From: Limisphaerales bacterium
Lineage (GTDB): Bacteria > Verrucomicrobiota > Verrucomicrobiia > Limisphaerales > CANJXF01
Assembly (NCBI GenBank): GCA_046595315.1
Contig: JBKJOZ010000377.1
Span: 1-55,287, forward strand
DNA: 55,287 bases
Direction: 5' to 3'
A program made the translations under genes and the position numbers. Below are positions 37,772-53,502 of the stretch, in pieces. Every line of letters begins with the position of its first letter. Positions within the stretch are counted from its first letter, which is position 1. The notes beneath the pieces were generated by a model. The model did not search any database, had not been told where the DNA came from, and saw only the letters and a list, made by a program, of their open reading frames with translations.

Positions 37772-38413
37772 TTGAAAAAAAACAGACCACAATTTATCGC
37801 CATCGTCGGCGGCAGCGGCTCAGGAAAAACCTGGCTTGCCGACCGGCTCGGAAAATCATTTGGTAAAAAAGTCGCGCGCATTTCCCTCGATGATTTTTAT
37901 CGGGACCGCTCCCATCTCTCCGTCAAACAACGGAACCAAATCAACTTCGATCATCCCCGGGCAATTGATTGGAAAAATGTGGAGCGTGTGCTCAATGATT
38001 TTGCCGCAGGCCGCGCCGTGCGCACACCAAAATACAATTTTACGACTCACGCGCGCGAAGAAAAATCAATTTCAATGAAACCCAAGCCGCTCATCATCAT
38101 GGACGGACTTTGGCTCTTGCGCCGCCCGGTTCTGAGACGTCTTTTTTCTTGCCGCATCTTCGTCGATTGCCCGGGTTCAATATGTCTGCGCCGACGTCTG
38201 GAGCGAGACCTCGCTGAACGCGGCCGTGACGCTTCCGCTGTGCGAAAACAATTTCTCAAACATGTCCTGCCCATGCAGGAACGGTTCGTTGCCTCACAAC
38301 TGCGCTGGGCCAATGTCGTGATCAAACAACCGAGCGAGAATCAAATCAGCCAACTGACCGAACAATTAAAAACAATTTTGAAAACAAATAATTATGAGCG
38401 AACAGCAAATTAA
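37772..38413 (+). CDS. udk: Uridine kinase
   Basis: 213 aa with a TTG start. It has the P-loop IAIVGGSGSGKTWLA and is collinear with E. coli Udk (FYRDRSHLSVKQRNQINFDHPRAIDW, IIMDGLWLL, IFVDCPGSICLRRRLERDLAERGR). Confidence 0.85.
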   Translation: MKKNRPQFIAIVGGSGSGKTWLADRLGKSFGKKVARISLDDFYRDRSHLSVKQRNQINFDHPRAIDWKNVERVLNDFAAGRAVRTPKYNFTTHAREEKSISMKPKPLIIMDGLWLLRRPVLRRLFSCRIFVDCPGSICLRRRLERDLAERGRDASAVRKQFLKHVLPMQERFVASQLRWANVVIKQPSENQISQLTEQLKTILKTNNYERTAN

Positions 38414-39122: not shown

Positions 39123-40417
39123 TGAAAGCTGTCCTTATTTGTCCTGCGGAGCGTGCGGAAGTTAGCGCACTCGAAGAATTTACGCCTTTGGTAAATCTTT
39201 CCATTCTGGGCAATCCCTTCATCCATCACTGGCTTGAATATCTCGCGGTCTGCGGGATTAAAAATGTGACCGTTCTCGCGGCAGATCGTCCCGAGCAAAT
39301 TCGCGCCGAAGTGGGCGACGGTTCACGCTGGGGAGTGCAAGTAGAAATTATTCCCGAATCTCACGAGCTCACTCTTGAAGAAGCACGCCAAAAATTGGGC
39401 GGCTCTGACGACATTATTTTGATCGACCACTTGCCGGGGTTGCCCACCGAAAAACTTTTTGCGAGTTATGTCGCTTTTTATTCTACCGTTCACAGGTGGA
39501 TCGAGAAAAATTCTCACCTAATGCAAATCGGTTTAAAAGAAATTCGTCCTGGCATCTGGGCTGGACTACACAGTCAAATTTCTCCGCGTGCGACACTGAC
39601 TGCGCCTTGCTGGATCGGTGAAAATGTTTTGATCAACGCAGACGCCGAGGTCGGCCCAATGACGATTTTAGAACGTGGCGTGGTTGTCGAAAGCGGCGCA
39701 ACAATCACCCATGCGTGGATCGGCAAAGAAACTTTTGTCGGCAACTTTACTCAGGTGAATAACTCCCTCGCCTTCGGAAACACGTTGGTAAATTTCATGA
39801 ACGCCTCCGTCGTGATAATCACCGATCCATTTTTGCTGTGCGCTTTGCAAGACCGGGAAATTTCTGTGAGTGCCGGAAATTTGTTTGGACGATGCGTAGC
39901 CCTCATCGTTCTGGCCTTAACCTCCCCGTTCGCCCTCGTGACAATGCTGAAAGCCAGATTCTTGGGTCACCGCACTTTTCGTCAGCGCCGAGCTATCGCA
40001 TCGCATTCGACCCCCCAACAATATCCAACGTTTATTTATTACGAATTTTCTTCGGCAAACGGATGGTGGAAACGCTGGCCGCAGTTATGGAGCATCGTGT
40101 GTGGCGAATTCACTTGGGTCGGCAACCGTCCGCTCACAACTTTTCAGGCCGGACAATTAGCCAATGAATTTGAGCGGCTCTGGCTCGCGGCGCCGATTGG
40201 ATTAATTTCCAAGGGTGATTCAGAAGGTTGCTCTGATTTGTCTTCCGACGAAGCCCATGCTCACGCCAGCTTCTATGCGGCACAAGCCAACTGGCGTTTA
40301 GATCTGATGATTCTTTTTCGCACCGTCAAACACTTGGCCGGGCGGAAAAAACCGGCCTCCGTGCAAAACGATTCAGCCACACTGAAAACGCGCCGTTTCA
40401 CCTTGCTGGCGCGTTAG
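39122..40417 (+). CDS. Fusion protein: degenerate NTP-transferase-like domain + left-handed beta-helix (hexapeptide) + degenerate sugar-transferase (pseudo-PGT) domain
   Basis: 431 aa; the ATG overlaps the PGT stop (TAATG). The N-terminus keeps the nucleotidyl-transferase layout (NLSILGNPFIHHWLEYLAVCGIKNVTVL..GDGSRWGV) but lacks the GxGxR loop. Hexapeptide repeats span about aa 150-235. The C-terminus has PGT-like blocks (LALTSPFALV, WPQLWSIVCGEFTWVGNRPL, AAPIGLIS, NWRLDLMILFRTV) with KR in place of the catalytic DE. Confidence 0.6.
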   Translation: MKAVLICPAERAEVSALEEFTPLVNLSILGNPFIHHWLEYLAVCGIKNVTVLAADRPEQIRAEVGDGSRWGVQVEIIPESHELTLEEARQKLGGSDDIILIDHLPGLPTEKLFASYVAFYSTVHRWIEKNSHLMQIGLKEIRPGIWAGLHSQISPRATLTAPCWIGENVLINADAEVGPMTILERGVVVESGATITHAWIGKETFVGNFTQVNNSLAFGNTLVNFMNASVVIITDPFLLCALQDREISVSAGNLFGRCVALIVLALTSPFALVTMLKARFLGHRTFRQRRAIASHSTPQQYPTFIYYEFSSANGWWKRWPQLWSIVCGEFTWVGNRPLTTFQAGQLANEFERLWLAAPIGLISKGDSEGCSDLSSDEAHAHASFYAAQANWRLDLMILFRTVKHLAGRKKPASVQNDSATLKTRRFTLLAR

Positions 40418-40607
40418 CCCCTAAATTTTATAATTTTTTCCCCTCAGGGGTTTCAGGCGAACACTGAGAAAAATGTGCGGCCATCGCCGCTGGAAGAAAG
40501 GTGCCCCCCCTGATTGTTGAGCCGTCTTTGCGCAACCTATAGTCAACGCGTATTTCCGAGCAGGAAGCAGGCAAATCCAAGGTCTTGCAGAAATAAAAAA
40601 AACATCT

Positions 40608-40910
40608 ATGAAAGTTCAAATTTGCGGAGACACATTAAGCATCACCGGTATGAAAGAATTAGGCGCGTCCAACGCTAATTCGTTTCGCGACCACGTTCGT
40701 GCAGCGCTGACCGAAGCAAACAAAATTATCGAGATCGATCTTTCCCAAACCATGTTCGTGGACAGCTGCGGACTGGGGGCGTTGATTTCGCTTCATAAAG
40801 TTGCCTGCACGCGAAATGGGCAAGTGCGCCTGCTCAATCCCACTCCGCCCGTCCAGCAGATTCTGGAACTCACCCGGATGCATCGCATTTTTGAAATCGT
40901 AAAACGCTGA
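40608..40910 (+). CDS. STAS-domain anti-sigma-factor-antagonist-like protein (SpoIIAA/RsbV/SypA-like)
   Basis: 100 aa. The phospho-acceptor context is conserved (MFVDS53CGLGALISL), followed by LNPTPPVQQILELTRMHRIFEI. Confidence 0.85.
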   Translation: MKVQICGDTLSITGMKELGASNANSFRDHVRAALTEANKIIEIDLSQTMFVDSCGLGALISLHKVACTRNGQVRLLNPTPPVQQILELTRMHRIFEIVKR

Positions 40911-40914
40911 GGAC

Positions 40915-42702
40915 ATGCCGCCCTCCCTCCCAATGCCATCGACCGCACGCCTCGGGTTTTCCATGGCGTGCGAATTGGAAGAAGTCCGCCCGATTGCCAA
41001 AGCCACGCGCGAATTTTTAGCCGCCAAAGGATTATCAGAAAATGAACTCATGGCGTGCGAATTGGTTTTGGTTGAGGCGTGCAACAACGCGGTGCTCTAC
41101 GTGATTCCATCGAGGCAACTCGAGCCAATCGGCGTTGAAATCTTCTGCGACGATTCGAAAATTGAGATCCAGATTCACGACCACACTGCTGGTTTTGAAC
41201 TGCCCGAACAGGTTGATCTGACCGACCTAGAAAGCGAAAGCGGGCGCGGTCTTTTCATCATCCAATCTTTGATGGATGACGTCAGTTACGCTGGGGGATT
41301 TGGGGAAAACACTCTGACGCTTCGCAAAATCCGCCCGCCGCAAAACAAAGAAATCATCTCAGAGAAAACGATTGAAAAACTGAAATTAAAACTGGCCGAG
41401 AACGAACAGATCATTGATGACATGACCGAGGAAATCAGTTCCTGCTACGAAAGTTTGTCTGCCATCTTTAGGAGCGGCGCTGAACTCGGGAAGTCTCACA
41501 ATCTCCAAACTTTCTCGCGATCATTGTGCGACGATTTGCTGAAAATTAATTCTGCTGACTGGTTTTTGCTCCGCATCGCACCGAAGGACGATACTGCGTT
41601 ATCCGTTTTCGTTTCGTCAGATTCCTCGGTTCAACTGCCCAGCATTTCTCCGGTTAATTCGGACGTTCATTCATTTGCGGAGATTAAGGCCGCCACCAGC
41701 CAAAAAGATGTTTGGTTCAATTCGAGAAATCCGCTCCACCCAAATGATCCGCTTCACGCCATGCCAGCGGCGCGCGTTGGATTGGTTCACCCGTTCTATT
41801 TTTCCGAAACTCTCATTGGAACTTTAGCCATTGGCAAAACACGAGCAGAACATCCTTTTACGTCAGCACATCTCAACGTGATCCATACGGTTTCCGATTT
41901 TTTAGCCATGCAGATCGTCAATGCTCGCCTTTACGAGGAACGACTCAATCACGGCTTGGTGACCCGTGAATTGGAAATTGCACGCGAAATTCAACGCGCT
42001 TTGCTCCCGAAAAAATTGCCGCGATTGCCCGGCTTTGCTCTCGCCGGTTTTTGCGAAAGTGCAAGACATGTGGGTGGAGATTTTTACGACGCCGTTCAAA
42101 TCGATGAACATTCTGCGCTGCTCGTGATCGCTGATGTGATGGGGAAAGGTGTCCCGGCGGCAATGTTCGCCGCGATTTTGCGCAGCATTTTGCGCGGTTC
42201 ACCAGAACTGGTCCGCCAACCCGCCGCGCTGCTGACCCGCGTGAACGGATTACTTCACGAAGAACTTTCCGATGTCGAAATGTTTATCACGGCACAACTG
42301 GCGTTCATCGACGTGCGTAAGCGTGAACTGATCGTCGCCAATGCCGGACATTGCCCTGCCCTGCTCTTTTGCGAAAACAATCCGGTGCCCAAACAAATTT
42401 CTCCGGAGGGAATGCCGCTCGGTATTTTGCGAAACGCTCTTTTCACCGAGGTGAAGGAACCATTGTTCCACCAATGCCGGGTTGTCTTCTACACCGATGG
42501 AGTTACGGAATCGCGCAACGCCAATGATCAATTTTTTGGGCATCAACGTCTCGTCGATTGGATGAGCGCGACGGCCGGAAAATTTCTAACGGCGGAACAA
42601 TTGAAAGAGTCTCTCGCGGCGGAGTTGAACCTTTTTCGGGATCGTAGCGCCCCGAGTGACGACCAGACATTTTTAATTTTGGCAGAGAATTTTCTAAACT
42701 GA
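40915..42702 (+). CDS. Fused RsbW/SpoIIAB-type serine kinase - GAF-like - SpoIIE/PP2C serine phosphatase
   Basis: 595 aa. The kinase half has ELVLVEACNNAVLY, HDHTAGFE and ESGRGLFIIQSLMD. The GAF-like middle ends LIGTLAIGK...FLAMQIVNARLYEE. The PP2C half has REIQRALLP, GGDFYD, IADVMGKGVPAAMF, FYTDGVTES and DDQTFLIL. Confidence 0.85.
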   Translation: MPPSLPMPSTARLGFSMACELEEVRPIAKATREFLAAKGLSENELMACELVLVEACNNAVLYVIPSRQLEPIGVEIFCDDSKIEIQIHDHTAGFELPEQVDLTDLESESGRGLFIIQSLMDDVSYAGGFGENTLTLRKIRPPQNKEIISEKTIEKLKLKLAENEQIIDDMTEEISSCYESLSAIFRSGAELGKSHNLQTFSRSLCDDLLKINSADWFLLRIAPKDDTALSVFVSSDSSVQLPSISPVNSDVHSFAEIKAATSQKDVWFNSRNPLHPNDPLHAMPAARVGLVHPFYFSETLIGTLAIGKTRAEHPFTSAHLNVIHTVSDFLAMQIVNARLYEERLNHGLVTRELEIAREIQRALLPKKLPRLPGFALAGFCESARHVGGDFYDAVQIDEHSALLVIADVMGKGVPAAMFAAILRSILRGSPELVRQPAALLTRVNGLLHEELSDVEMFITAQLAFIDVRKRELIVANAGHCPALLFCENNPVPKQISPEGMPLGILRNALFTEVKEPLFHQCRVVFYTDGVTESRNANDQFFGHQRLVDWMSATAGKFLTAEQLKESLAAELNLFRDRSAPSDDQTFLILAENFLN

Positions 42703-42703
42703 T

Positions 42704-43060
42704 ATGTCCAGAAAAATATTAATCATCGATGACAAGCCGTTTATGGTGCGACTGATTCAGCACCACTTGGAGCGCGCGGGTTATGAATTGATCAAGGCGC
42801 GAAATCCACAGGAAGCGGCCGACGCCATCGCCCTGCAATCTCCTGAACTCGTCTTGTTGGATGAATCAGGTGCCAATCAAATCACGCTCGGCGATTTCAA
42901 AGCAAAAGAACCGGCTCATCGCTTGCCGGTGATTCGCATGACCGACATGCCACAGACTCTCGATGAAAACCACCCCGGCAACGAAGTCGTTTTAACCAGA
43001 CCGTTCAGCCCGACTCACTTGGTCGCGGAAGTAAAACGGTTAGTGCGCGAAACCAAATAA
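42704..43060 (+). CDS. Stand-alone receiver (REC) domain protein, atypical
   Basis: 118 aa with the acidic pocket ILIIDDK, phospho-acceptor LVLLDES and Thr in VIRMTD. The conserved Lys position reads Arg (LTRPFSP) and the post-Asp 'MP..dG' turn is absent. Confidence 0.75.
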   Translation: MSRKILIIDDKPFMVRLIQHHLERAGYELIKARNPQEAADAIALQSPELVLLDESGANQITLGDFKAKEPAHRLPVIRMTDMPQTLDENHPGNEVVLTRPFSPTHLVAEVKRLVRETK

Positions 43061-43065
43061 ATAAA

Positions 43066-44259
43066 ATGAAATCTGTTCTCCCTATTTTTATCATGATCGA
43101 CGCCTGCGGTTGGGAAATCGTGAAGCGCGATCCTTTTCTCAACTCGATTGCGCCGGAACGGAAAAAGCTCGGCTCCGTTTTCGGTTACAGCTCGACTTGC
43201 GTGCCCTCCATTCTCTCCGGGCGCTGGCCCGTCGAACATCGCAATTGGTGCTACTTTGTTTACGACCCAAAAAATTCTCCGTTCAAATTTCTTAAGCCGT
43301 TACGCTGGTTGCCCTCGGCCCTCACCAGTCGTCGTATTTTCCGGCGCTGGCTCACGAAGCTCGTTCGCCGCCACCTTGGCTTCGAAGGCTATTTTGATCT
43401 CTACAACATTCCGTTCAAACACATCACGCTTTACGACTTCAGTGAAAAGAAAAGCCCACTCAAGCCCAAGGGAATGAATCGTGGCTCAAATATTTTTGAT
43501 TTTCTGGGCGAGAACAAAATTCCTTATTTCGTGAGCAACCCCGACAAAACGGAGCCGGAAAATTTTGAAAATCTCCTCACCACAATCAAAGGCGAGAAAA
43601 TTGATTTCGCATTTTCTTACTGGCCCGGACTCGACGGACTGCTGCACAGCGTCGGCAATCAATCGCCCGAGGTTCCAAAACGCCTGCGTCATTATGAACA
43701 GTGGATCGAAAAAGTGATGGCGACGGCGCGCGAACATTACGACGAAGTGAAGCTCTACGTTTTCAGCGATCATGGGATGGCCAATTGTGATGAGTTAATC
43801 GATTTGAAAGCCAAGATCGATGCGCTTGATGTGAAAATGGAAAAGGATTACGCCGTGGTTTACGACTCCACCATGGCACGCTTTTGGTTCTTCAACAAAA
43901 ACGCTCGCGAGAAAATTTCCCGTTGCCTGCAAGGTGTTCCAGAAGGCCGGATCCTGCCTGATTCCGAACTGGAAGAAATGCGCGCTCTTTTTCCAGATCG
44001 CTATTTTGGGGAATTAATTTTCCTCGTAAAAGAGGGCGTTTTGATTGTGCCAAGTCACATGGGCGAACGCCCCATTCGCGCCATGCATGGCTATCATCCT
44101 TCGGACAAACACAGTTACGCCGCGCTGTTCACGAACCAGACAGAAATTCCCGACGACATCAATGCCATCCCCGATATTTATAAATTGATGACGCAGGAGG
44201 CTGAACAGGCGCGCATCGAAAACAAAAAACCATCGGCGGTTCATGCCGCCGCAATTTAA
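43066..44259 (+). CDS. Alkaline-phosphatase-superfamily type I phosphodiesterase/nucleotide pyrophosphatase-like enzyme (cytoplasmic)
   Basis: 397 aa with no signal peptide or TM. It has the metal/nucleophile blocks FIMIDACGWE and GYSSTCVPSILSGRWPVEH, plus GLDGLLHSVG, VFSDHGM and AMHGYH. Confidence 0.7.
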   Translation: MKSVLPIFIMIDACGWEIVKRDPFLNSIAPERKKLGSVFGYSSTCVPSILSGRWPVEHRNWCYFVYDPKNSPFKFLKPLRWLPSALTSRRIFRRWLTKLVRRHLGFEGYFDLYNIPFKHITLYDFSEKKSPLKPKGMNRGSNIFDFLGENKIPYFVSNPDKTEPENFENLLTTIKGEKIDFAFSYWPGLDGLLHSVGNQSPEVPKRLRHYEQWIEKVMATAREHYDEVKLYVFSDHGMANCDELIDLKAKIDALDVKMEKDYAVVYDSTMARFWFFNKNAREKISRCLQGVPEGRILPDSELEEMRALFPDRYFGELIFLVKEGVLIVPSHMGERPIRAMHGYHPSDKHSYAALFTNQTEIPDDINAIPDIYKLMTQEAEQARIENKKPSAVHAAAI

Positions 44260-44271
44260 CCCAAAATCAAG

Positions 44272-46956
44272 ATGCCTACCTTGACTGCTTCAACCACTTT
44301 AGTTCGCTCCGAAAGTTTTCCACGAACGAAAAGAAAATCTCCCGTTGATGTTGGCTTGCAACAATGGTTCGAGGCCAAAGCGTCTGAATTTCCAAAAGCA
44401 GTCGCGGTATCCTTTCCGGAAAATTCCAAACAACAGGAAATTAGCTATGGCGAATTAAATTTTCGCGCCAATCAACTCGCGCGACACCTGCGCAAAGCGG
44501 GCGTCGGGCCGGACGTTGTCGTCGGCATTTGCGCCGAGCGTTCGTTTGAATTGATCGTTGCCGCCCTCGCCGTCATCAAAGCGGGCGGCGCGTACCTTCC
44601 CCTCGATCCCACTTATCCAAAGGAACGTTTGTCGTTCATGCTCGAAGACACCAGTGCGCCGATAATTTTAACACAAGAAAAGCTCGCCCCGACTTTGCCG
44701 AAGAACGATGCACATTTGCTTTGTCTCGATACCGATTGGAAAGCCATCGCCAAAGAGCCGGGCGAAAATCTCGACTGCATCGCCAGCCACGATCATCTGG
44801 CTTATCTGATTTATACATCCGGATCGACCGGAAAACCGAAAGGCGTCGCCATGCGCCACGGCCCGCTGGTCAATCTGTTATTGTGGCAATTCCAGAACTG
44901 GAGCGCGCGCCCGGACGCCAAAACGTTGCAGTTTGCTTCGCTCAATTTTGACGTTTCGTTTCAGGAAATTTTTTCGACGCTCGGCTCCGGCGGAACGCTC
45001 GTCCTGGTCTCCGAAGAATTACGCCGAGATTCCAATCGGCTCCTCAATTTTTTGGATGAACAGCAAGTTGAAAGAATTTTTTTACCGTTTGTCGCGTTGA
45101 AACATTTGGCGGATGCCTCGGAGCGCGAACAAATTTTCCCACGACAACTGCGCGAAGTCATCACGGCGGGAGAACAATTGCAGATCACGCCGCAAGTGAC
45201 GCGATTTTTCAGCAAACTGCCTCGCTGTACGTTGCACAATCAGTATGGACCTTCGGAAACCCACGTCGTCACCGCGTTTGATTTGAAAGGTTCGCCGCAA
45301 AACTGGCCGGCGCTTCCGTCCATAGGGAAAGCCATTTTCAACACGCAAATTTTTATTTTGGACGAACAGCTTCGACCTGTAGAACCCGGCACGCCGGGCG
45401 AGTTGTTCATCGGCGGTGATTGTCTGGCGCGTGGATATTTGAATCGCCCCGAGTTGACCGCCGAAAAATTTATCGCCAGTCCATTCGCGCAAAATTCCCG
45501 GCTGTATAAAACGGGAGATCTCGCTCGTCAGTTGCCGGACGGAAATTTTGAGTTTCTCGGACGCATCGATCATCAAGTTAAAATTCGCGGATTCCGGATC
45601 GAGCTCGGGGAAATTGAAACCGTTTTGAGCCAGCATCCGGCCATTCGCGAAGTCGTTGTCGTCGCCAAAGAAAGCGCCAACAGCGACAAAAAACTGGTCG
45701 CCTACATCGTGGCCAATCCTGGGGCCGCAGCCACTTCGTCGGAGCTAAGAAAATTTCTCACCAACAAAATTCCGAGCTACGCAGTTCCCTCAATTTTCAT
45801 GCAGCTCCCGGCATTTCCGTTGACGCCAAATGGCAAGGTGGATCGGCGCGCTTTGCCCGAGCCTGTGGTCGAGGAGGATTTTTCAGCGCAAATCAAACCG
45901 CCGCAAAGCCCGTTAGAAATGCAATTGCAACTCGTGTTCGAAAAATTTCTCAATCGTCGGCCAATTGGAATTGACGTGAGCTTTTTCGAACTGGGCGGCG
46001 ATTCCCTGCAAGCTCTGAAGTTGATCGTCGAAATCGAGCGGTTCACGGGGAAGAAATTGCCGCTCGAAATTCTTTTTCAAAATTCCACGATCGAATCGCT
46101 GGCGACATACATCCAAAATTCTTCCGGCGACTTCAAATTTTCCTCCATGGTTCCGCTCCAGCCCTTAGGAAATCGGCCGCCGCTATTTTTCATCCACACC
46201 ACGCCCGGCGATGTGCTGGCTTACGGCGCATTGATTTATCATCTAGGCCTGGATCAGCCGTGCTACGGATTTCAGTCACTCGGTTTTGGCCGCAAGGAAG
46301 AAAGTCACACGCGCGTCGATCAAATGGCAGCGTATTACATCAAGCAACTCCGGACGATCCAACCGCATGGCCCCTATTATCTCAGCGGCTGGTGCTACGG
46401 TGGAATTGTCGCTGTCGAAATGGGGCATCAACTTTTGGCCGCCGGTGAAGAAGTGGCTTTGATGGCGTTGATTGAAACGCCGGCTCCGGCTCCGGCTCCG
46501 GCCAAATCCAATTTTCGATTTTATGTGCGGCGCATCGGTTGCGTGCTGAAAATGAGTCCGCGGCAATGGCGGATTTATCTCGCTGAAAAAATTAAATATT
46601 ACCGGGGCGTTAAACGAGAAAACGAAATGCGTTTTCGTCGGGTAGATCAATCCGAAAACCCAGATAAAATCGACGAGATCAATCAGCATCTCGAACAACT
46701 CGAGCATGTTTATCACACCAATCTCGACGCGCTGAATTCTTACAACGTTCGTCCATATCCGCGCAAAGTGGTGTTATTCAACGCGCAAGATCAAGATCCT
46801 GCACAGGTCATCGATCCGCTCTACGGCTGGCCGAGTCTCGCGTCGCAAATCGAAGTCCACAGCGTGTCTGGAAATCACGACACAATTTTAATGGAGCCAC
46901 ACGTCCGGCAACTCGCAGAAAAATTCTCCGACTGTCTGGTGCGCTCCCAACATTAA
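44272..46956 (+). CDS. NRPS-like single-module enzyme: adenylation - thiolation (PCP) - thioesterase, no condensation domain
   Basis: 894 aa. A-domain cores are LAYLIYTSGSTGKPKGV, FDVSFQEIF, NQYGPSE, GELFIGGDCLARGY, YKTGDLA, GRIDHQVKIRGFRIELGEIE and PNGKVDR. The PCP motif is FFELGGDS578LQALKL. The TE has PLFFIHTTPGD, GWC708YGG and GNHDTIL. Confidence 0.9.
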   Translation: MPTLTASTTLVRSESFPRTKRKSPVDVGLQQWFEAKASEFPKAVAVSFPENSKQQEISYGELNFRANQLARHLRKAGVGPDVVVGICAERSFELIVAALAVIKAGGAYLPLDPTYPKERLSFMLEDTSAPIILTQEKLAPTLPKNDAHLLCLDTDWKAIAKEPGENLDCIASHDHLAYLIYTSGSTGKPKGVAMRHGPLVNLLLWQFQNWSARPDAKTLQFASLNFDVSFQEIFSTLGSGGTLVLVSEELRRDSNRLLNFLDEQQVERIFLPFVALKHLADASEREQIFPRQLREVITAGEQLQITPQVTRFFSKLPRCTLHNQYGPSETHVVTAFDLKGSPQNWPALPSIGKAIFNTQIFILDEQLRPVEPGTPGELFIGGDCLARGYLNRPELTAEKFIASPFAQNSRLYKTGDLARQLPDGNFEFLGRIDHQVKIRGFRIELGEIETVLSQHPAIREVVVVAKESANSDKKLVAYIVANPGAAATSSELRKFLTNKIPSYAVPSIFMQLPAFPLTPNGKVDRRALPEPVVEEDFSAQIKPPQSPLEMQLQLVFEKFLNRRPIGIDVSFFELGGDSLQALKLIVEIERFTGKKLPLEILFQNSTIESLATYIQNSSGDFKFSSMVPLQPLGNRPPLFFIHTTPGDVLAYGALIYHLGLDQPCYGFQSLGFGRKEESHTRVDQMAAYYIKQLRTIQPHGPYYLSGWCYGGIVAVEMGHQLLAAGEEVALMALIETPAPAPAPAKSNFRFYVRRIGCVLKMSPRQWRIYLAEKIKYYRGVKRENEMRFRRVDQSENPDKIDEINQHLEQLEHVYHTNLDALNSYNVRPYPRKVVLFNAQDQDPAQVIDPLYGWPSLASQIEVHSVSGNHDTILMEPHVRQLAEKFSDCLVRSQH
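46480..46503 (+). repeat. Hexanucleotide tandem repeat (CCGGCT)x3 + CCGGCC inside the TE domain
   Basis: Read directly from the sequence. It is in frame and encodes PAPAPAPA. Confidence 0.9.
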
Positions 46957-46976
46957 TTTTTTAGAAATTACCCACC

Positions 46977-48530
46977 ATGACCAACCAAGATGTCACTCGA
47001 AATATTTGGCGGAATTCCATTTCCAATTACGTTTGCACCGCGATCCGGATGGTCGTCGGCCTTCTGATGTTTCGGATGCTTTATCAACATCTGTCACGTG
47101 AAGAATTTGGTTTTTGGGCGCTGCTTTGGAGCGTGTTTGGTTACGGCATCCTGCTCGATTTCGGATTCGGTTTTACAGCCGAGAAAAGAGTGGCAGAGCT
47201 TTCGGTTCATCAAGAATGGGATCGCTTGAGCCGCATTCTCAGCACCATCTTTTTTGTCTATCTTGCCATCGGAATTTTGATGGTCTTGACGATCCTTTTA
47301 ACTTCCAGTCACGTGATTGATTTTTTTAACGTCACCTCAGGGAACCACGAACGTTTTCGCAAAATTTTAGTCTGGTTCTTTGCGGGAATGGCAATTGCAT
47401 TTCCACTCGGAATTTTTCCAGAAATCTTGATCGGCCAGCAAAGGATTTGCCTGACCAATATTATTTTTTCCACCGGCGTCGTCGCCAATTTTGTTTTTGT
47501 CGCGTTGGCCGTCCATTTTCACTGGAAGCTGCAAACCATTTTCATCATTGCGCTGCTCAGCGGCATTCTCCCGTGCGTGGTTTCGGCAATGTTCGCCTTT
47601 CAATATTTACCCAAGGTGAAAATTCGACTGAGCTATTTTTCGTGGGGGACTATTCGTGAGACGATGCAGTTTTCCATTTTTGCTTATATCAGCACGGTCA
47701 GTAACATCATCGTCGCCAAGACAGATCAACTGGTGATTAGCGCAGCCTTGTCCGTATCGGCAGTGGCAGTTTATCAAGTCAGCGCCAAGCTAGCGGAAAC
47801 GTTTGGCGGGTTTACTCAACAATTGCCGAGCACATTTTCTCCTGCGGCGGCGCACATGCACGCCAAGGGAGACAAAGCATTTCTCAAAAATCTCCTCATC
47901 GACGGCACTCGCTTCACGCTAATGATTGGCACGCCGCTTTATTTTATCTGCGCGTTTTACATGGAGGGCATTCTTTCCATTTTGACCGGTGACAAAATCC
48001 CGAGCCACGAAACGTTTTGGATCGGGCAGGTTCTTCTCTTCTGGTGCTACATGGTTTTGGTCACGCAAAGTGTATCCAAACGCATTTTCATGATGTGCGG
48101 ACACGAACGCATTTTGATGAAATTAAGCTGCGGTGAAGCGCTGCTGAATCTCGCGTTGAGCATCGGATTGGTTCTTTATTTCAAAAATGTTTTGTGCGTC
48201 GCCCTCGGCTCACTGATCTCCACGATGATCTTTGGTTGGTTTTTCGTCTGGCCCATGGCGGCACGCGAAGCGGAAATGTCCTGCTGGCAACTGGCGCGCA
48301 CTGTCTTGATTCCAATCTGGCTAGCGTCGCTGCCGTTGTTGGGCTTTCTCTTGCTCGGTCGATTTGTCCCGTGGTTTGATTTTCGCACCAGCACGCTTCT
48401 GTTTTTTGCAGAATGCGCAGTGGCAGTTTTGGTCGCTGCCATCAGTTTTTGGCACGCAGCCCTTAAACGAAACGAACGCGAACATCTCACCGCGCGATTT
48501 GGAAAATATTTCAGGATTACCCCGGTATGA
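46977..48530 (+). CDS. wzx: Wzx-type oligosaccharide/polysaccharide flippase (MOP superfamily)
   Basis: 517 aa with about 12-14 TM segments. The N-terminal pattern NSISNYVCTAIRMVVGLLMFRMLYQHLSREEFGFWALLWSVFGYGILLDFGFG is typical of polysaccharide biosynthesis (Wzx) proteins. Confidence 0.75.
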   Translation: MTNQDVTRNIWRNSISNYVCTAIRMVVGLLMFRMLYQHLSREEFGFWALLWSVFGYGILLDFGFGFTAEKRVAELSVHQEWDRLSRILSTIFFVYLAIGILMVLTILLTSSHVIDFFNVTSGNHERFRKILVWFFAGMAIAFPLGIFPEILIGQQRICLTNIIFSTGVVANFVFVALAVHFHWKLQTIFIIALLSGILPCVVSAMFAFQYLPKVKIRLSYFSWGTIRETMQFSIFAYISTVSNIIVAKTDQLVISAALSVSAVAVYQVSAKLAETFGGFTQQLPSTFSPAAAHMHAKGDKAFLKNLLIDGTRFTLMIGTPLYFICAFYMEGILSILTGDKIPSHETFWIGQVLLFWCYMVLVTQSVSKRIFMMCGHERILMKLSCGEALLNLALSIGLVLYFKNVLCVALGSLISTMIFGWFFVWPMAAREAEMSCWQLARTVLIPIWLASLPLLGFLLLGRFVPWFDFRTSTLLFFAECAVAVLVAAISFWHAALKRNEREHLTARFGKYFRITPV

Positions 48531-49444
48531 ACGATCCACTTGTCAGCATCATTTTGCGTTCCTACAACGAAGCCTGGGCTTTGGGCGCCACTCTTGCTGC
48601 CTTGCAAGCGCAGGAGTATAAAAACTGGGAACTGATCGTAATCGACTCCGGCTCCACCGACGGCTCCGCTGATTTAATTCGCAAAGCCAACCCGCGTCAT
48701 TTTCATCAAATCAAGCCATCTGAATACAATCCCAGCCGCGTGATGAACTGGGGAATGCGCCTGGCGAAAGGTGATTATGGAATTTTTCTCAACGCCGACG
48801 CCCTTCCCCAAAACGAAAATTGGCTCCGCCCGCTGGTTGAGCCACTCCTGAATCCTAAAACGGCCGCCGTTTTCGGGAGGCAGATTCCGCGCCTGGATTG
48901 CCAGGCCGTTTACGCCTGCGATTACGAACGCTGTTTTGGCCCGCATCGCGAGTCAGCAAATTGGGATCATTTTTTCAGCATGGTGAGCAGCGGACTTCGT
49001 AAAGACATTTGGGCGCAACGCGGTTTCCTTGAAAAACTTCAATACGCCGAAGACGACGAATATACGCGTTGGTGCAAAACCGAAAATTATCGGGTGGTTT
49101 ATTGCCCCGAATCGGTCGTCATGCACTCGCACAATTACACTCCGGCGCAATCCTACAAACGTAGCTTTGGCGATGCGCGCGCGCTGGCCGCTTCGTGGCA
49201 GAATGATCCAAATTATTTTAATTTTTTCCGAACCGTTTTGCTCGGCTCGATCAGCGACCTTCGGCATGACTTTCGATTTTGCGCGCAGCACCGCCGCTTG
49301 CCGGAATTTCCACACGCTGCACAAATCCGATGGCATCAACGTCGCGGAAAACTCGATGGATTTCGCGCCGGTTGGAAAGATTATCGAATAAACGACACGA
49401 CGTGCGTGCCACAAACGTTGTCGGCTGTTTTATCTGGAAAATGA
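48527..49444 (+). CDS. Glycosyltransferase family 2
   Basis: 305 aa; the start overlaps the wzx stop (ATGA). It has VSIILRSYNEAWALGATLAALQAQEYKNWELIVIDSGSTDGS and FLNADALP. Confidence 0.85.
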   Translation: MNDPLVSIILRSYNEAWALGATLAALQAQEYKNWELIVIDSGSTDGSADLIRKANPRHFHQIKPSEYNPSRVMNWGMRLAKGDYGIFLNADALPQNENWLRPLVEPLLNPKTAAVFGRQIPRLDCQAVYACDYERCFGPHRESANWDHFFSMVSSGLRKDIWAQRGFLEKLQYAEDDEYTRWCKTENYRVVYCPESVVMHSHNYTPAQSYKRSFGDARALAASWQNDPNYFNFFRTVLLGSISDLRHDFRFCAQHRRLPEFPHAAQIRWHQRRGKLDGFRAGWKDYRINDTTCVPQTLSAVLSGK

Positions 49445-50583
49445 ATTCCCGTTTCACAATTGATGGAAGTGACGTGCTGGAAAATCATTTAACGCAGACC
49501 TGCCAGCGCGTTGCCACTGGCGTCCGAAAAATTATCCCCAATGGCGAGCTGGAGGCACTCCTGCTTGGTGGCGGTTATGGTCGAGGCCAAGGCGGCGTTC
49601 TCAAAACCGATTCCGGCGATCAACCTTACAACGATCTCGAGTTTTACGTCTGTCTGCAAGGCAGCGAACTTTTGAATCGAAGAAAATATCGGCGCGCCAT
49701 CCATCATCTCGCCGAGAAACTTTCCCCTGAGGCTGGGCTTGAAGTGGAATTTAAAATTACCTCGCTCGATAAGTTGCGGAAAAATCCGCCGACCATGTTC
49801 AGCTACGATTTAGCCTGCGGACATCGCTCGTTTTTGGGCGACGATAATTCGTTTGCTAAAAATTCGGCACCGAACGCGGAAAGCATCCCGCAATGCGAGG
49901 CGACGCGGCTCCTGATGAATCGTTGCTCTGGTTTGCTCTTCGCCAAAGAGCATTTGCAACGCAAACCGTTTACCGAACAAGACGCTGATTTCGTCGGGCG
50001 CAACCACGCCAAGGCGCAACTCGCGTTCGGCGATGTTATCCTGACGGCGCACGGCCAATATCATTGGGATTGTCGCGAGCGAAATCGGCGGCTTGCCCAT
50101 TTTTCGTCTCAGGCACTGCCGTGGATAAACGAAGTCCGCCGTCATCACGACATCGGGTTGCAATTCAAACTTTATCCCCAGCGCAGCCGCGATTCCATGG
50201 ATGTTTTGTGCGAGCGCCAACGCGCCTTGACGGACCTCGGTTTGAAAATATGGCTTTGGCTAGAGAGCACGCGGCTTAAAAGAACGTTCACCTCCGCCCG
50301 TAATTACGCTTTCGATACTTGCGACAAATGTCCCGAAACCAATTCGCTGCGTAATTTGTTGATCAATGCTCGAACATTCGGCATTGCCATTTTGTTTGAA
50401 AGCAATCCGCTCCGCTATCCGCGCCAACGATTGCTTCATGCTTTGGCGCTGTTGCTGTGGGAACCAACCGCCTTGACCAAGCCAAGTTTATGGCAACGGC
50501 TCCAGACTGAGCTGAGCACGAACGCAGTGCAGTTTCCCGAGTTGGTCAAAGCCTACGAATTTTTGTGGAAACAATTCAACTAA
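49441..50583 (+). CDS. Hypothetical protein, weak nucleotidyltransferase-fold-like N-terminus
   Basis: 380 aa from ATG 49441, which overlaps the GT2 stop (ATGA). The stretch ALLLGGGYGRGQGGV...PYNDLEFYVCL loosely resembles the G[SG]-x(n)-DxD/E pattern of pol-beta-type NTases. The rest is helical-looking and unassigned. Confidence 0.35.
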   Translation: MNSRFTIDGSDVLENHLTQTCQRVATGVRKIIPNGELEALLLGGGYGRGQGGVLKTDSGDQPYNDLEFYVCLQGSELLNRRKYRRAIHHLAEKLSPEAGLEVEFKITSLDKLRKNPPTMFSYDLACGHRSFLGDDNSFAKNSAPNAESIPQCEATRLLMNRCSGLLFAKEHLQRKPFTEQDADFVGRNHAKAQLAFGDVILTAHGQYHWDCRERNRRLAHFSSQALPWINEVRRHHDIGLQFKLYPQRSRDSMDVLCERQRALTDLGLKIWLWLESTRLKRTFTSARNYAFDTCDKCPETNSLRNLLINARTFGIAILFESNPLRYPRQRLLHALALLLWEPTALTKPSLWQRLQTELSTNAVQFPELVKAYEFLWKQFN

Positions 50584-50588
50584 CGCCC

Positions 50589-51830
50589 ATGAAAATTCTT
50601 GTTTTTTATCCTTACATTCCTTGGCCGCTAGATCGCGGAACCTACCAGCGCACTTTCAACCTCCTGCGCGAACTTGCGAAAACGCACGAAGTTGATTTGC
50701 TCGCACTCGCTTCAAATGGAGAGGGAGTCGAACACAAAGCGCTTTTCGAAACATTCTGTCGGCGTGTGGAATTCGTTCCATTCCAACATCCGCAATGGGA
50801 AAAACTTTTTCCCACACGCCTGCTTAACCCGCTTCCCACCAGCATCGCGCACTGGACAATGCCGCATGTGCAACAGGCTGTGGACAAGATGCTCGCCAGC
50901 GAAAAATACGATGCGGTTCACGCGTGCGACATCGTCCTCGCCCAATATTTCATGCGTCACCATCGCGCCATGCCACTAGTTATCGACCGAAGCCGCGTCG
51001 ATCTCCAATTCCAATTGATGGAACATCAACGAATGAATTTTTCCGCGCGCACTAAACTTCTCCGGTGCGAAGGTTATTTAAAAATGTGGATCTACGAACG
51101 GGCTGTGGCGCGCCGCGCCGCGCTGGAAATTGTTTGCGGGCCGGACGACGAAATATTTTTACGCAAATATGTCAGCCGGAAGATGCCGGTCTCCGTCCTC
51201 GTCAACGGCGTCGATTTAGATTTTTTCCGCCGGGAAAATTCCGATGCGCCACGAGCGCAAAAGCCAACGCTCATTTTTTGTGGCGCGATGGATTACAACC
51301 CGAACATCGACGCGTTACGCTGGTATTTTCAGGAAATTCATGAGTCGTTGCGCAAACAAGTTCCTGAGCTGGAAGTATTGGTGGTCGGCAAACAACCGAC
51401 CGCCGAAGTGCTGGCTTACGGACAAAAGCCCAGTGTGACTGTAACGGGCAGCGTGCCGGATGTGCGCCCGTTTTATCGGCGCGCCTGGTTGCAAATCGTG
51501 CCGCTTCGCATCGGTGGCGGAACGCGTTTAAAAATCGTTGAATCGATGGCGATGGGAACACCCATCATCTCCACCACGATCGGCGCTCAAGGACTCAACC
51601 TGCGTCATGACCATGACATTCTCTTGGCCGATCGCGCTGAAGATTTCGTGCAACAAACTGCGCGTGCTCTGCGCGAGACGGTGCTGCGGAATCATTTGGA
51701 GAAAGCCGGATTGGAAACGGTTCACGCGCGCTTTTCCTGGACAAAACTGGGCGGAGAACTGGGCGGGCTTTACAGCAAAAATGCGCGTGAAAAGAACGGC
51801 AAAGCTCACTTCACGCCAGCTTGCGCATGA
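50589..51830 (+). CDS. Glycosyltransferase family 4, second 'stp1'/TIGR03087-like paralogue
   Basis: 413 aa from ATG 50589. It has MKILVFYPYIPWPLDRGTYQRTFNLLRELAKTHEVDLLAL, FCGAMDYNPNIDALRWYF and VPLRIGGGTRLKIVESMAMGTPIISTTIGAQGL. Confidence 0.85.
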   Translation: MKILVFYPYIPWPLDRGTYQRTFNLLRELAKTHEVDLLALASNGEGVEHKALFETFCRRVEFVPFQHPQWEKLFPTRLLNPLPTSIAHWTMPHVQQAVDKMLASEKYDAVHACDIVLAQYFMRHHRAMPLVIDRSRVDLQFQLMEHQRMNFSARTKLLRCEGYLKMWIYERAVARRAALEIVCGPDDEIFLRKYVSRKMPVSVLVNGVDLDFFRRENSDAPRAQKPTLIFCGAMDYNPNIDALRWYFQEIHESLRKQVPELEVLVVGKQPTAEVLAYGQKPSVTVTGSVPDVRPFYRRAWLQIVPLRIGGGTRLKIVESMAMGTPIISTTIGAQGLNLRHDHDILLADRAEDFVQQTARALRETVLRNHLEKAGLETVHARFSWTKLGGELGGLYSKNAREKNGKAHFTPACA

Positions 51831-51872
51831 AACATTAAAATATTTTTAACCTCCAAAGCGAAACCGAATCCA

Positions 51873-52379
51873 TCACTCTTTTCCTTGGACAAACGAACTC
51901 AGGTTTTCCGGGGGCGGTGGAATCTGAATGACCTCCAAATAATTTTTAATGCTCTCTGCCATTTTGACTGTTCCATTAAAATCATTCGGCTTGTGCAATA
52001 AACTGTTTGCGGCCAAATCATAAACTAGACGCGATCGCAACTCGCTTTTGTCCGAGGTGAGAATAAAAACCAAAAGCCTTTTGTGTTCGGGTTGCTCCCG
52101 AATCCAAGTCAACAGTTGTATGCCATCCGTTTCGGGCATGTTCAAATCCAGCAACAAGCAAACGGGATAGGGAAATTTATTACGATCCGCAAACTTTCCT
52201 TCCCCTTTGAGATAAGCTTTGGTTTCGTCCCCGCTGCGAGTCGAGAGGAGTGGCTTTGCCCAACCGACCTGAGTAAATGCCTCATGAAAAAGAAAGAAAT
52301 GATCTTCGTTATCGTCGGCCAAAAGAATTGTTCCGTTCAGCTTCATAAAAGGCGCGGACCCGATATTTGCATTGATCAA
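51873..52379 (-). CDS. Stand-alone response-regulator receiver protein (canonical)
   Basis: 168 aa; the start may instead be Met13 at 52343. It has ILLADDNED, LLLDLNMPETDG, FILTSD and LHKPNDF. Confidence 0.8.
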   Translation of the reverse strand: MINANIGSAPFMKLNGTILLADDNEDHFFLFHEAFTQVGWAKPLLSTRSGDETKAYLKGEGKFADRNKFPYPVCLLLDLNMPETDGIQLLTWIREQPEHKRLLVFILTSDKSELRSRLVYDLAANSLLHKPNDFNGTVKMAESIKNYLEVIQIPPPPENLSSFVQGKE

Positions 52380-52423
52380 CGCAGGTGTCGAATCTGTTTG
52401 AAAATAATTTCTGAAAATAAAAG

Positions 52424-52960
52424 TCAGTAATTAATTGCGACAATTTCCAGTTCCTCTTCGCCCGCAGGAAAGCGAAAAAGAACATGTTGAGCTATCCGCG
52501 AATTAAGGAGTGCGCGGGCAATCGGTGACCGCCAACTCACCCAATCGCGGTCGATATCCGTTTCGTCAACTCCCACAATCCGGTACTCGGTTTCGATTCC
52601 CCTTTTATTTCGCACTTTGACCGTTGCGCCAAATCGCACCACTTCTTCGGGCGCGCTGGGTGGTTGAACGATTTCAGCAGATTGCAAACTCACTCCTAGG
52701 TAGGCGATTCGTTGATCTAAAATTTGTAATTGGCGACGCGCATCGGAAACAACGGCATCCGTTCCTTCCGTGGAAGATTTTGAAATTTGACTGGAAAGTC
52801 GCGGGCGCTCTATTTGAATCAAAGCATCCAATTCGTGCCGCAACCGTTTCGCGCCGTCCGGCGTCAGATAATTTTTTACGCCCGGCGGCAATGGTGATGG
52901 CGCAACCCGTAGGAGTGGCTCTTCTGCCAAATCGTCTTCTCGCGTAAATGCCTTGCTCAT
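52424..52960 (-). CDS. GreA/GreB-family transcription factor-like protein
   Basis: 178 aa with an N-terminal coiled-coil-like region. The C-terminal Gre-type domain reads VRFGATVKVRNKRG..EYRIVGVDETDIDRDWVSWRSPIARALLNSR. Confidence 0.75.
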   Translation of the reverse strand: MSKAFTREDDLAEEPLLRVAPSPLPPGVKNYLTPDGAKRLRHELDALIQIERPRLSSQISKSSTEGTDAVVSDARRQLQILDQRIAYLGVSLQSAEIVQPPSAPEEVVRFGATVKVRNKRGIETEYRIVGVDETDIDRDWVSWRSPIARALLNSRIAQHVLFRFPAGEEELEIVAINY

Positions 52961-53020
52961 GCACTAAGGTACCCGCGTTTCCGAAACAAAACTACCGGGC
53001 AACGCTTTTCCCCCATCGGT

Positions 53021-53428
53021 TCAAACCACCTTCACATTTTGCAACTGTTCCATCGCGTTTTGCACTCCTTGGAGTGAATGAAGCATTTGCGCGCGCATCT
53101 CATCGGTGGGCGGAACTTTGGGGTCGTTGATCAACTTCGACATTTCTTCGAGAAGCACGGGTGTCCGCTTTTGCAAACTCGCCATCTGCTTTTCCCAAAT
53201 CAACTTCTTATTCGCGCATTTCAACAAATCGGTTAGGTAATCAATATCTTCCCGCGTCGTTCTGCGTCCCTCGTGTTTTACGTTCACTGCGTCCAACTCG
53301 GCTTTCAAATCGGTGATTGTTTTCTGGCAACGTTCGATATCTGCGACCAACGTTTGGAGATCCAAAATAACCTGGCGCTGTTGCACGGCGCTTTTTTCGA
53401 TCAATTGCTTGAGTGACATAGAATTCAA
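53021..53428 (-). CDS. Hypothetical coiled-coil protein
   Basis: 135 aa with heptad-like, charged composition. No family was recognised. Confidence 0.4.
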   Translation of the reverse strand: MNSMSLKQLIEKSAVQQRQVILDLQTLVADIERCQKTITDLKAELDAVNVKHEGRRTTREDIDYLTDLLKCANKKLIWEKQMASLQKRTPVLLEEMSKLINDPKVPPTDEMRAQMLHSLQGVQNAMEQLQNVKVV

Positions 53429-53502
53429 CGACCTTTTTCGCCACGTCTGTCAGCTGGCGTGCTGCATCTGTGACAGGTGCAAGTTAAAGTGGTCGTAACA
53501 AC

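Follow-up and report, generated by a model that had tools for sequence, protein, structure and literature searches.

A Wzx-type glycan locus with a putative partner switch and a predicted amino acid-activating cassette in a Limisphaerales bacterium

In Vibrio fischeri, SypE phosphorylates the STAS protein SypA at Ser56, which blocks production of the syp polysaccharide, and dephosphorylation allows it (PMC4517449). The sugar transferase All4160 of Anabaena carries a fused STAS domain, through which a kinase and the SpoIIE phosphatase HenR gate synthesis of the heterocyst polysaccharide; its homologue XssP of Synechocystis is again a STAS-sugar-transferase fusion under the control of a kinase and a SpoIIE phosphatase (bioRxiv 10.64898/2026.04.08.717354). 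The thioesterase (TE) domain of Pks13 releases its acyl chain, mycolate, onto trehalose (PMC12933137), which shows that a TE can acylate a sugar. Here we describe a run of nine plus-strand genes in a stretch of 55,287 nucleotides from contig JBKJOZ010000377.1 of a Limisphaerales bacterium of the phylum Verrucomicrobiota (hereafter the window). The run begins with a STAS gene and continues with genes for a kinase/GAF/PP2C protein, a stand-alone receiver, an NPP-type phosphodiesterase, a nonribosomal peptide synthetase (NRPS)-type protein consisting of adenylation, carrier, and thioesterase domains (A-T-TE), a Wzx flippase, a GT2 glycosyltransferase, a nucleotidyltransferase (NTase)-like protein, and a GT4 glycosyltransferase (Table 1). 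To our knowledge, almost nothing is known of the surface glycans of the Verrucomicrobiota, which are abundant in soil, freshwater, and guts.

The nine genes are best read as the distal operon, probably with a promoter of its own, of an accessory locus of 13 genes (36435-51830), in which they are preceded by genes for a GT4, a uridine kinase-like protein (Udk), a small phosphoglycosyl transferase (PGT), and a PGT-like pseudoenzyme (pseudo-PGT). Taking all the evidence together, we lean slightly towards the view that this is a locus for a lipid-linked oligosaccharide combined with an amino acid cassette and a partner switch. The oligosaccharide would be built at the cytoplasmic side of the membrane before being handed over to Wzx. 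The small PGT would initiate the glycan on undecaprenyl phosphate, the GT4, GT2, and GT4 enzymes would extend it, and the NTase-like protein and the NPP-type enzyme would attach or modify a substituent that is phosphate linked or nucleotide activated. The A-T-TE of this lineage would adenylate a proline-like amino acid and load it onto its own carrier domain, and Cys708 of the TE would transfer it not to water but to the lipid-linked glycan, onto a hydroxyl or amino group, comparable to the action of the Pks13 TE on trehalose. Wzx would then flip the completed unit. A posttranslational gate may act on this pathway: the kinase/GAF/PP2C protein would phosphorylate and dephosphorylate Ser53 of the STAS protein upon sensing of a ligand by the GAF domain, and unphosphorylated STAS would activate a biosynthetic enzyme, most likely the PGT/pseudo-PGT pair, by analogy with the cyanobacterial STAS-sugar-transferase fusions. 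We put forward more tentatively, at somewhat less than even confidence, that this is an undescribed route of the Verrucomicrobiota, in which an A-T-TE with a Cys-type TE (Cys-TE) aminoacylates a lipid-linked glycan from a serotype-like slot and in which the GAF-sensing switch acts on enzymes and not on a sigma factor. The cassette of that route would come in interchangeable versions, predicted to be Pro-like, of the DAEAIGAIAK type and mostly with an N-terminal GNAT domain, or Ala- or Gly-like, with a methyltransferase domain in two of the three sequences of the last kind.

Packing and conservation of the locus

A junction script run on the open reading frame (ORF) list gives successive gaps of 4, 1, 5, 12, 20, -4, -4, and 5 nt across the nine genes, with the NTase-like gene starting at an internal ATG of the 49279 ORF and the terminal GT4 gene at an internal ATG of the 50565 ORF. 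The block is preceded by a noncoding stretch of 190 nt (40418-40607) and followed by a convergent receiver gene that is outside the conserved locus in most relatives. The gaps, the 190-nt stretch, and a convergent downstream gene had been listed in an earlier reading of the DNA made without database searches (the sequence-only reading) and were all reproduced, and the domain content given there was confirmed by Pfam and NCBIfam, the protein called unknown being the NTase-fold-like one. The packing exceeds chance. The conservation in relatives and the absences described below mark the nine genes as an accessory gene cluster rather than a random run. Comparably tight gaps (3, 3, -4, -4, 5, -4, -4, 16, -4, and 3 nt) are found in L102, one of the related loci described below. 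Base composition is uniform across the window.

When all window proteins were compared by tblastn with the contigs of relatives, the nine genes were collinear in seven genomes of three genera: five of the same genus (G003, G004, G006, G007, and G008), one of a sister genus in the same family (G009), and one of another family in the same order (G032). The group GT4-Udk-PGT-pseudo-PGT lies directly 5' of them wherever the relatives' contigs extend far enough. Full-length orthologues of the A-T-TE, 63 to 78% identical, occur in five congeners, the sister-genus genome, and G032. Seven relatives have the A-T-TE gene together with the NTase-like gene, and three congeners that are 92 to 97% complete have neither, which suggests that the locus is gained or lost as a whole. 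The sequence-only reading had proposed a tightly coupled unit and had named conserved gene order in relatives as a check on it; the synteny across genera and the absence of the whole locus from the three near-complete congeners both speak for such a unit. Its placing of the initiating PGT and a udk gene in the preceding block also held, given the Bac_transf and PF00485 scores of these two proteins (Table 1). Contrary to what had been supposed there, the module is not self-contained, because the four upstream genes are co-conserved directly 5' of it and run nearly without a gap into the STAS gene in some distant relatives.

With an alignment of the 380-amino-acid (380-aa) NTase-like protein as a probe, more than 530 loci were recovered, nearly all of them in metagenome-assembled genomes (MAGs) of Verrucomicrobiota, and the locus is widespread in this phylum. 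Among the best 120 homologues no cultured, named strain was found; all were MAG or metagenome proteins named 'hypothetical'. A gene census covered those 38 loci whose upstream flank reached 9 kb or more, and since a 10-kb flank was used its counts are lower bounds. The GT2 gene was present in 37 loci, the NPP-type phosphodiesterase gene in 27, Wzx in 18, STAS in 16, the pseudo-PGT gene in 13, kinase/PP2C in 11, the receiver in 9, and the A-T-TE gene in 6. The GT2 gene lies 5' of the NTase-like gene in those 37 loci, mostly directly adjacent to it, and an orthologue of the terminal GT4 directly follows the NTase-like gene in 17 of 71 loci.

A second set consists of six independent loci (L100 to L105), which were entered from diverse A-T-TE relatives of three architectures and at least two adenylation-code classes. 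All six share the order (GT4)-PRK-PGT-left-handed beta-helix (LbH) protein-STAS-kinase/PP2C-(REC)-phosphodiesterase-(FkbM methyltransferase), continued by A-T-TE variant-Wzx-GT2-(GT4)-NTase-like-GT4, with L105 being a reduced version that is without the PRK-PGT-LbH genes and the kinase. Their genes are packed as closely as those of the window. The constant core is the NPP-type phosphodiesterase and the GT2/NTase-like pair; STAS is common, and kinase/PP2C and receiver are optional.

Individual loci carry further genes. The FkbM methyltransferase gene recurs in five of the six loci L100 to L105 and is absent from the window. In the locus of G032 (L015, minus strand), an FkbM methyltransferase gene (11578-12348) stands before the A-T-TE gene, which there carries a condensation-domain remnant, and a gene for a DHH-CBS-DHHA2 protein resembling family II pyrophosphatases (13566-15200) lies between the receiver and the phosphodiesterase. 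A string of DUF883/holin-like genes (YqjD/YqjE type) is found directly 5' of L102, at positions 1-889.

The stretch from the phosphodiesterase to GT2 differs among loci. In 11 loci without an A-T-TE gene, the distance from the phosphodiesterase to Wzx is gene-sized, about 1.3 to 1.4 kb; the slot gene is a distinct GT4 in the two A-T-TE-less loci examined, L048 has Acyl_transf_3, DUF2334, GT4, Wzy_C, and methyltransferase genes in the slot, and the phosphodiesterase gene adjoins GT2 directly in four loci. This stretch is a hypervariable decoration slot, like the serotype-determining middle of O-antigen and capsule loci. We considered whether the slot GT4 is the extra GT4 that relatives carry between GT2 and the NTase-like gene, moved to a new place, and rejected this because the two are 27% identical over half of their length.

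The A-T-TE gene is thus located where decorating enzymes sit, which is the best available evidence that its product ends on the glycan. It was found in only 6 of the 38 loci, a lower bound, and in a hypervariable slot, so it is not the fixed part of the module that the sequence-only reading took it to be. The same low count would fit an alternative in which the A-T-TE is a passenger natural-product enzyme, inserted in a permissive variable region, that releases a free or lipid-bound amino acid derivative, such as a prolyl ester, thioacid, or N-acyl amino acid, away from the glycan. The genome contains other NRPS genes, the ObiF1 structure (6n8e) is among the PDB matches of the A-T-TE, and the protein has no recognisable acceptor-binding domain. 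Moreover, Cys-type TEs are tied to unusual release chemistry in small-molecule pathways. However, the gene has the same position in all six loci L100 to L105, between the phosphodiesterase (or the FkbM methyltransferase) and Wzx and with gaps of -4 to +31 nt, the slot is otherwise filled by glycan decorators (GT4, acyltransferase_3, methyltransferase, Wzy), and the tailoring, export, and resistance genes typical of small-molecule clusters are absent. We consider release away from the glycan unlikely and prefer a role of the cassette in glycan decoration.

Table 1. Predicted features of the 13-gene locus and its downstream boundary (coordinates of the nine-gene block, 40608-51830, are from the ORF list)
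Feature	Position	Strand	Evidence and remarks
GT4 glycosyltransferase, first gene of the upstream block	36435-37634	+	Pfam Glycos_transf_1, 124.7 bits
PRK/uridine-kinase family protein, Udk-like	37772-38413	+	PF00485, 118.6 bits; 20-nt overlap with the PGT gene
Small monotopic phosphoglycosyl transferase, initiating PGT	38394-39122	+	Pfam Bac_transf, 227.4 bits; LDELPQ catalytic block present
Pseudoenzyme fusion: NTP-transferase-like N terminus, LbH, PGT-like C-terminal half	39122-40417	+	Pfam Hexapep; Bac_transf profile positions 92-177 only
Promoter-like motif	40511-40543	+	TGATTGTTG-N18-TATAGT; in the 190-nt spacer
Single-domain STAS protein, anti-sigma-antagonist type	40608-40910	+	PF01740, 55.2 bits; TIGR00377, 56.9 bits (cutoff, 53.45)
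Fused RsbW-type serine kinase, GAF, and PP2C (SpoIIE) phosphatase, 595 aa	40915-42702	+	HATPase_c_2, 73.5 bits; SpoIIE, 142.6 bits
Stand-alone receiver, 118 aa	42704-43060	+	Pfam Response_reg, 33 bits
Cytoplasmic NPP-type phosphodiesterase of the alkaline phosphatase superfamily	43066-44259	+	Pfam Phosphodiest, 69.4 bits
Condensation-free NRPS-type A-T-TE	44272-46956	+	TIGR01733, 443.8 bits (cutoff, 317.4); PP-binding, 54.3 bits; PF00975 Thioesterase, 85.3 bits
Wzx-type flippase (MOP superfamily)	46977-48530	+	Polysacc_synt_3, 46.9 bits; Polysacc_synt, 39.7 bits; NCBIfam WZX_like, 48.6 bits (under cutoff)
GT2 glycosyltransferase	48527-49444	+	Glycos_transf_2, 81.5 bits; ATGA overlap with both neighbours
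Uncharacterised pol-beta-fold NTase-like protein with helical C-terminal domain, 380 aa	49441-50583	+	AlphaFold2 (AF2) model, Foldseek
Terminal GT4 glycosyltransferase	50589-51830	+	Glyco_trans_1_4, 86.7 bits; TIGR03087 'stp1', 251.4 bits (cutoff, 316.65)
Convergent receiver-domain gene, downstream boundary marker	51873-52379	-	Pfam Response_reg, 41.7 bits; 42 nt past the GT4 stop

According to the domain scans, the window is a patchwork of glycan loci. Another plus-strand sub-locus, with an ABC-2/Wzt transporter, a PLP decarboxylase, and GT4s, contains an MBOAT (AlgI/DltB-like) gene that is followed after 7 nt by a gene for a 380-aa protein without a Pfam family (14007-16653); this pair could be an O-acylation module unrelated to the nine-gene block. 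Between glycan sub-loci, at 27284-33155, a 1059-aa WD40 beta-propeller/Big_7 protein and a GH9 cellulase-type hydrolase with CelD_N are encoded. Three further proteins of the glycan island (8256-9275, 10626-12821, and 22132-23217; 339, 731, and 361 aa) matched no Pfam family at an E value of 0.01 or lower.

Upstream block, spacer motif, and transcription

Orthologues of the first upstream GT4, 78% identical, are present 5' of the locus in G003 and G007, and the gene has the same place in L102 and L104. The PRK gene is immediately 5' of the PGT gene in L100, L102, L103, and L104, and orthologues of the PGT in G003, G007, and G032 are 69 to 75% identical. The pseudo-PGT is without the Asp-Glu dyad, having WKRW opposite the LDEL of the PGT (a BLASTP alignment of the two begins at PQ), and it is kept 5' of STAS in many loci.

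The spacer between the pseudo-PGT and STAS genes carries a promoter-like motif (Table 1), whose GATTGT and CTATA-TCA columns are invariant in six genomes, including G032 of another family. The motif is also present in L102 and partially in L101. It occurs once in the 3.2-Mb genome, compared to no occurrence for a reversed-pattern control. A generic sigma-70 scan did not flag it, and the idea that it is the general promoter consensus of the organism was rejected because of its single occurrence. Located 5' of the motif, at about 40477-40490, is a hairpin (GCGGC...GCCGC) with an A-run before it, which is kept in the aligned relatives with base changes and which scored as terminator-like on the minus strand only, where no gene converges. 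Rfam gave no match in 36000-53000 at a permissive threshold.

We consider it likely from the sequence that one transcript extends from about 40550 to 51830. The eight junctions are all 20 nt or shorter and two of them are ATGA overlaps, so there is no intergenic room for a promoter or terminator. It is doubtful, in our opinion, that the nine genes do not form one transcription unit, either because of internal promoters, for example before the phosphodiesterase or Wzx gene, or because of a 13-gene read-through from 36435. The STAS gene of several distant relatives comes right after the pseudo-PGT gene, the spacer being short or missing, so that upstream read-through looks ancestral and a separate promoter may be a trait of the clade of the window. 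In addition, gain and loss of the regulators do not go along with those of the enzymes, and the generic scan found no plus-strand terminator in the 190-nt gap; the plus-strand terminator-like sites in 36000-53000 are all within coding sequence. Read-through from 36435 may therefore occur. Against a divided unit stand, besides the junctions themselves, the equally tight spacing in relatives (L102) and the position of the conserved promoter-like motif, which lies exactly in the sole large gap.

The putative aminoacyl cassette and the glycan enzymes

The carrier serine of the A-T-TE is present in GGDSL, and the top single-module PDB match of the protein is TycB module 1 (9bfd_B), which activates proline. 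Based on the motif positions in a MAFFT alignment, the adenylation code is DVQVIAQVVK, and it is the same in eight orthologues, down to 58% overall identity. The canonical Pro code is DVQLIAHVVK, and related published ones are DVQYIAHVVK, DVQYVAHVVK, and DVQFVSQVMK; the window code agrees with the published ones at 8 of 10 positions, and Gln at position 322 is present in one published code too. The A-T-TE thus probably activates a proline-like amino acid. The valine at position 278, where an aromatic residue would be expected, may leave room for a substituted proline or pipecolate.

The nucleophile elbow of the TE, GWC708YGG, has Cys708 (codon 46393-46395) and not the Ser of a Ser-His-Asp triad. 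This Cys is present in all 121 family sequences, and a conserved His stands in GNHDTIL. In its N-terminal half the TE is nearest to NRPS thioesterases, including that of AB3403, and among the solved TEs that were matched only the Pks13 TE aligns over the full TE length. Searches with the carrier-TE half recovered 1449 relatives at an E value of 1e-10 or lower, the named ones almost all from Verrucomicrobiota, and these show four architectures: A-T-TE, truncated-C-A-T-TE, GNAT-(C)-A-T-TE, and A(methyltransferase)-T-TE. There are at least four code classes among the 121 sequences. The Pro-like class has 42 members, and about 72 sequences, mostly long forms with a GNAT domain, have a code of the DAEAIGAIAK type. 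An Ala-like code, DLFSNAL[VT]YK, was found in two sequences, one of them a methyltransferase-containing form, and DILSGGLVYK was found in one, also a methyltransferase-containing form.

Pfam detected no condensation domain (PF00668) in the A-T-TE of the window. The relatives in L015, L044, and L063 are extended at the N terminus to about 1130 to 1150 aa, and in L015 (the locus of G032), the only one scanned, the extension is a truncated C-domain remnant covering profile positions 185-280 of 456. As judged from these sequences, the condensation domain has been lost in the genus of the window and persists as a remnant in the G032 orthologue.

The set expected for a Wzx pathway is present, with an initiating PGT, three glycosyltransferases, and the flippase. 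A Pfam search of 36435-51830 found no Wzy, Wzz, or outer-membrane export gene; a Wzy_C protein (24487-25929) is encoded 11 kb upstream on the opposite strand. The short glycan repeat suggested by the sequence-only reading is therefore no more than a possibility.

The phosphodiesterase is 82 to 84% identical within the genus and is among the best-conserved enzymes of the locus. Its AF2 model has a predicted local distance difference test score (pLDDT) of 83.5, and the top Foldseek matches are ENPP6, ENPP5, ENPP7, and a Xanthomonas NPP, with E values of about 1e-14 and template modelling (TM) scores of about 0.6. The metal ligands D12, D190, H194, D235, H236, and H341 are invariant. The expected nucleophile, Thr44, is replaced by Ala in 9 of 25 orthologues, and the adjacent Cys45 (codon 43198-43200), in a C-V-P-S motif at the N terminus of a predicted helix, is invariant. 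This suggests that the nucleophile may be Cys or a modified Cys, which would be unusual in an NPP fold. The C-V-P-S motif resembles the C-x-P-x-R formylglycine motif of sulfatases, minus the Arg.

No Pfam, NCBIfam, or PDB sequence or profile match was found for the 380-aa NTase-like protein. Its AF2 model has a pLDDT of 93.8, and the top Foldseek matches are ANT(4'), AAD(9), and HalB, with a probability of 1.0 but weak E values of about 3e-3 and TM scores of 0.36 to 0.48. GGYGRG, Asp65, and Asp123 are kept without exception and Glu67 at 90% or more; these residues would fit the pol-beta catalytic pattern. The family comprises 2395 representative clusters, all of them unannotated or 'hypothetical'. 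A search of 301 genomes sampled from the phylum found the marker in 66 at an E value of 1e-30 or lower, many of these hits outside the class of the window being distant homologues whose gene context was not checked. Natural fusions of GT2 and the NTase-like protein exist (P0266 and P0129; 676 and 710 aa), which argues that both act together.

The putative partner switch and comparison with known systems

The predicted switch has the complete domain set, namely, a STAS protein with a phosphorylatable Ser, an RsbW-type kinase, and a PP2C phosphatase predicted to act on STAS. Ser53 of the STAS protein lies in DSCGLG, and D-S-x-G-[LVF]-G is present in 17 of 18 homologues, the exception being DGAGLG in L088. 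The 595-aa protein contains the motifs EACNNA, GRGL, GGDFYD, DVMGKG, YTDGVTE, and DDQT, which include the N and G boxes of the kinase and all PP2C aspartate motifs. Its central domain (residues 195-331) matches GAF_2 at 25.5 bits, which is under the cutoff, and is not a receiver as in SypE. The stand-alone receiver is degenerate in the clade of the window, with a shortened alpha3 and an Arg for the conserved Lys (TRPF); in the alignment the L044 orthologue has a Thr at the position of the acceptor Asp, and the gene is absent from several related loci. This suggests that the receiver is eroding in this clade and may be a pseudoreceiver. As the STAS gene comes directly after the PGT and pseudo-PGT genes, we infer by analogy that STAS gates initiation, with the PGT/pseudo-PGT pair as its most likely target.

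Alternatively, STAS, kinase/PP2C, and receiver could form a classical partner switch that acts on a sigma factor or transcription regulator encoded elsewhere and so controls expression rather than enzyme activity. HATPase_c_2 is similar to RsbW and SpoIIAB, which are anti-sigma factors, and the STAS protein scores above the cutoff of TIGR00377, the model of the anti-sigma-antagonist superfamily. In addition, the conserved, genome-unique motif 5' of STAS could serve a dedicated regulator or an alternative sigma factor. However, domain scans found no sigma factor gene in 36000-55287 or in L100 to L105, STAS persists without the kinase directly beside the enzymes in L105, and the best-studied polysaccharide-linked cases work without a known sigma factor. 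We think that control of expression is improbable and favour a switch that acts on the enzymes. Even in the Vibrio model, the partner switch has no known target.

Several points weigh against the overall picture of a lipid-linked oligosaccharide decorated by the cassette and gated by the switch. In some loci (L105 and several others) STAS occurs without the kinase, there beside the phosphodiesterase, so that the switch may have another target or work in another way. The single transcript is one that we infer from sequence, and consensus scans of 36000-53000 were at chance level, with 4 promoter-like sites (13 expected) and 32 terminator-like sites (29 expected). The adenylation code, read from motif positions in an alignment, departs from the canonical Pro codes at 2 of 10 positions. 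Transfer to a sugar is argued only by analogy, hydrolysis and cyclisation being the usual reactions of TE domains. The structural matches of the NTase-like model are weak (E value of about 3e-3 and TM score below 0.5). With no Wzy, Wzz, or outer-membrane export gene in the block, the final product may be an exopolysaccharide (EPS), an O-unit, or a protein glycan.

In the literature we found no description of an NRPS-type aminoacyl enzyme inside a Wzx or glycan locus, in particular of a Cys-TE cassette, of the conserved GT2/NTase-like/NPP core, or of this locus in Verrucomicrobia. The sequence-only reading had recognised no described pathway with this gene combination. That stands for the NRPS-type cassette in a Wzx locus and falls for the pairing of regulator and glycan genes, since partner-switch control of polysaccharide is already described for SypA/SypE and HenR/All4160. 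The locus unites a posttranslational switch, a conserved GT2/NTase-like/NPP trio, and an NRPS-type cassette. If the proposed transfer takes place, it would be a third way, besides Dlt and the tRNA-dependent transferases, of placing amino acids on envelope polymers, and the amino acid decoration could vary from strain to strain as sugar side-branches do. The Cys-TE family, with more than 1400 members and at least four codes in one slot, is a natural variant set for the question of how a release domain chooses acceptors other than water.

Among the known systems, the PEP-CTERM/XrtA EPS loci are similar in that the terminal GT4 is nearest to TIGR03087, an exosortase is encoded in the genome, and asparagine synthase and PLP decarboxylase genes, which also occur in such loci, are present in the window. 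Such a locus was rejected because the GT4 is under the cutoff (251.4 versus 316.65 bits) and the only exosortase match is on contig C140; furthermore, the A domain is an amino acid adenylation domain and not the TIGR03098 acyl-CoA ligase (203 versus 592 bits). With DltABCD the locus shares an adenylation enzyme predicted to charge a phosphopantetheinyl carrier with an amino acid destined for a surface polymer, and DltA models score 270 to 284 bits against the A domain, under their cutoffs. Here, however, the A domain, carrier, and Cys thioesterase are fused, transfer is expected in the cytoplasm, before Wzx, and the code is Pro-like and not for D-Ala. A Dlt-like system was rejected because neither an MBOAT protein (DltB) nor DltD is linked in the block or in L100 to L105; the MBOAT gene of the window (14007-15503) belongs to the other sub-locus, 26 kb away. 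AB3403 of Acinetobacter baumannii (C-A-T-TE; PDB 4zxh) has the same GWC-x-GG elbow as the TE of the window, but it retains a complete condensation domain, makes a small molecule, and is not in a Wzx locus. The Pks13 TE likewise is not in a Wzx locus, and it differs in handling a long lipid and in having a Ser nucleophile.

The closest parallels are on the regulatory side. As in the syp locus, the STAS protein has a single domain and its gene comes first among polysaccharide genes, one bifunctional Ser-kinase/PP2C protein is present, the D-S-x-G serine is conserved (Ser56 in SypA, Ser53 here), and neither locus has a sigma factor. SypE has a central receiver, whereas the protein described here has a GAF domain and a degenerate receiver is encoded by a separate gene; the hosts also differ (Vibrionaceae versus Verrucomicrobiota), and the biosynthetic genes (NPP-type, NTase-like, and A-T-TE) are unrelated. 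In the HenR/Alr3423/All4160 system the kinase and phosphatase are separate and the target is known, whereas here the two are fused and STAS is a protein of its own. In both cases a STAS domain that is switched by phosphorylation, as predicted here, is tied to a polysaccharide enzyme, and the STAS protein encoded next to the PGT/pseudo-PGT pair could be the split form of such a fusion.

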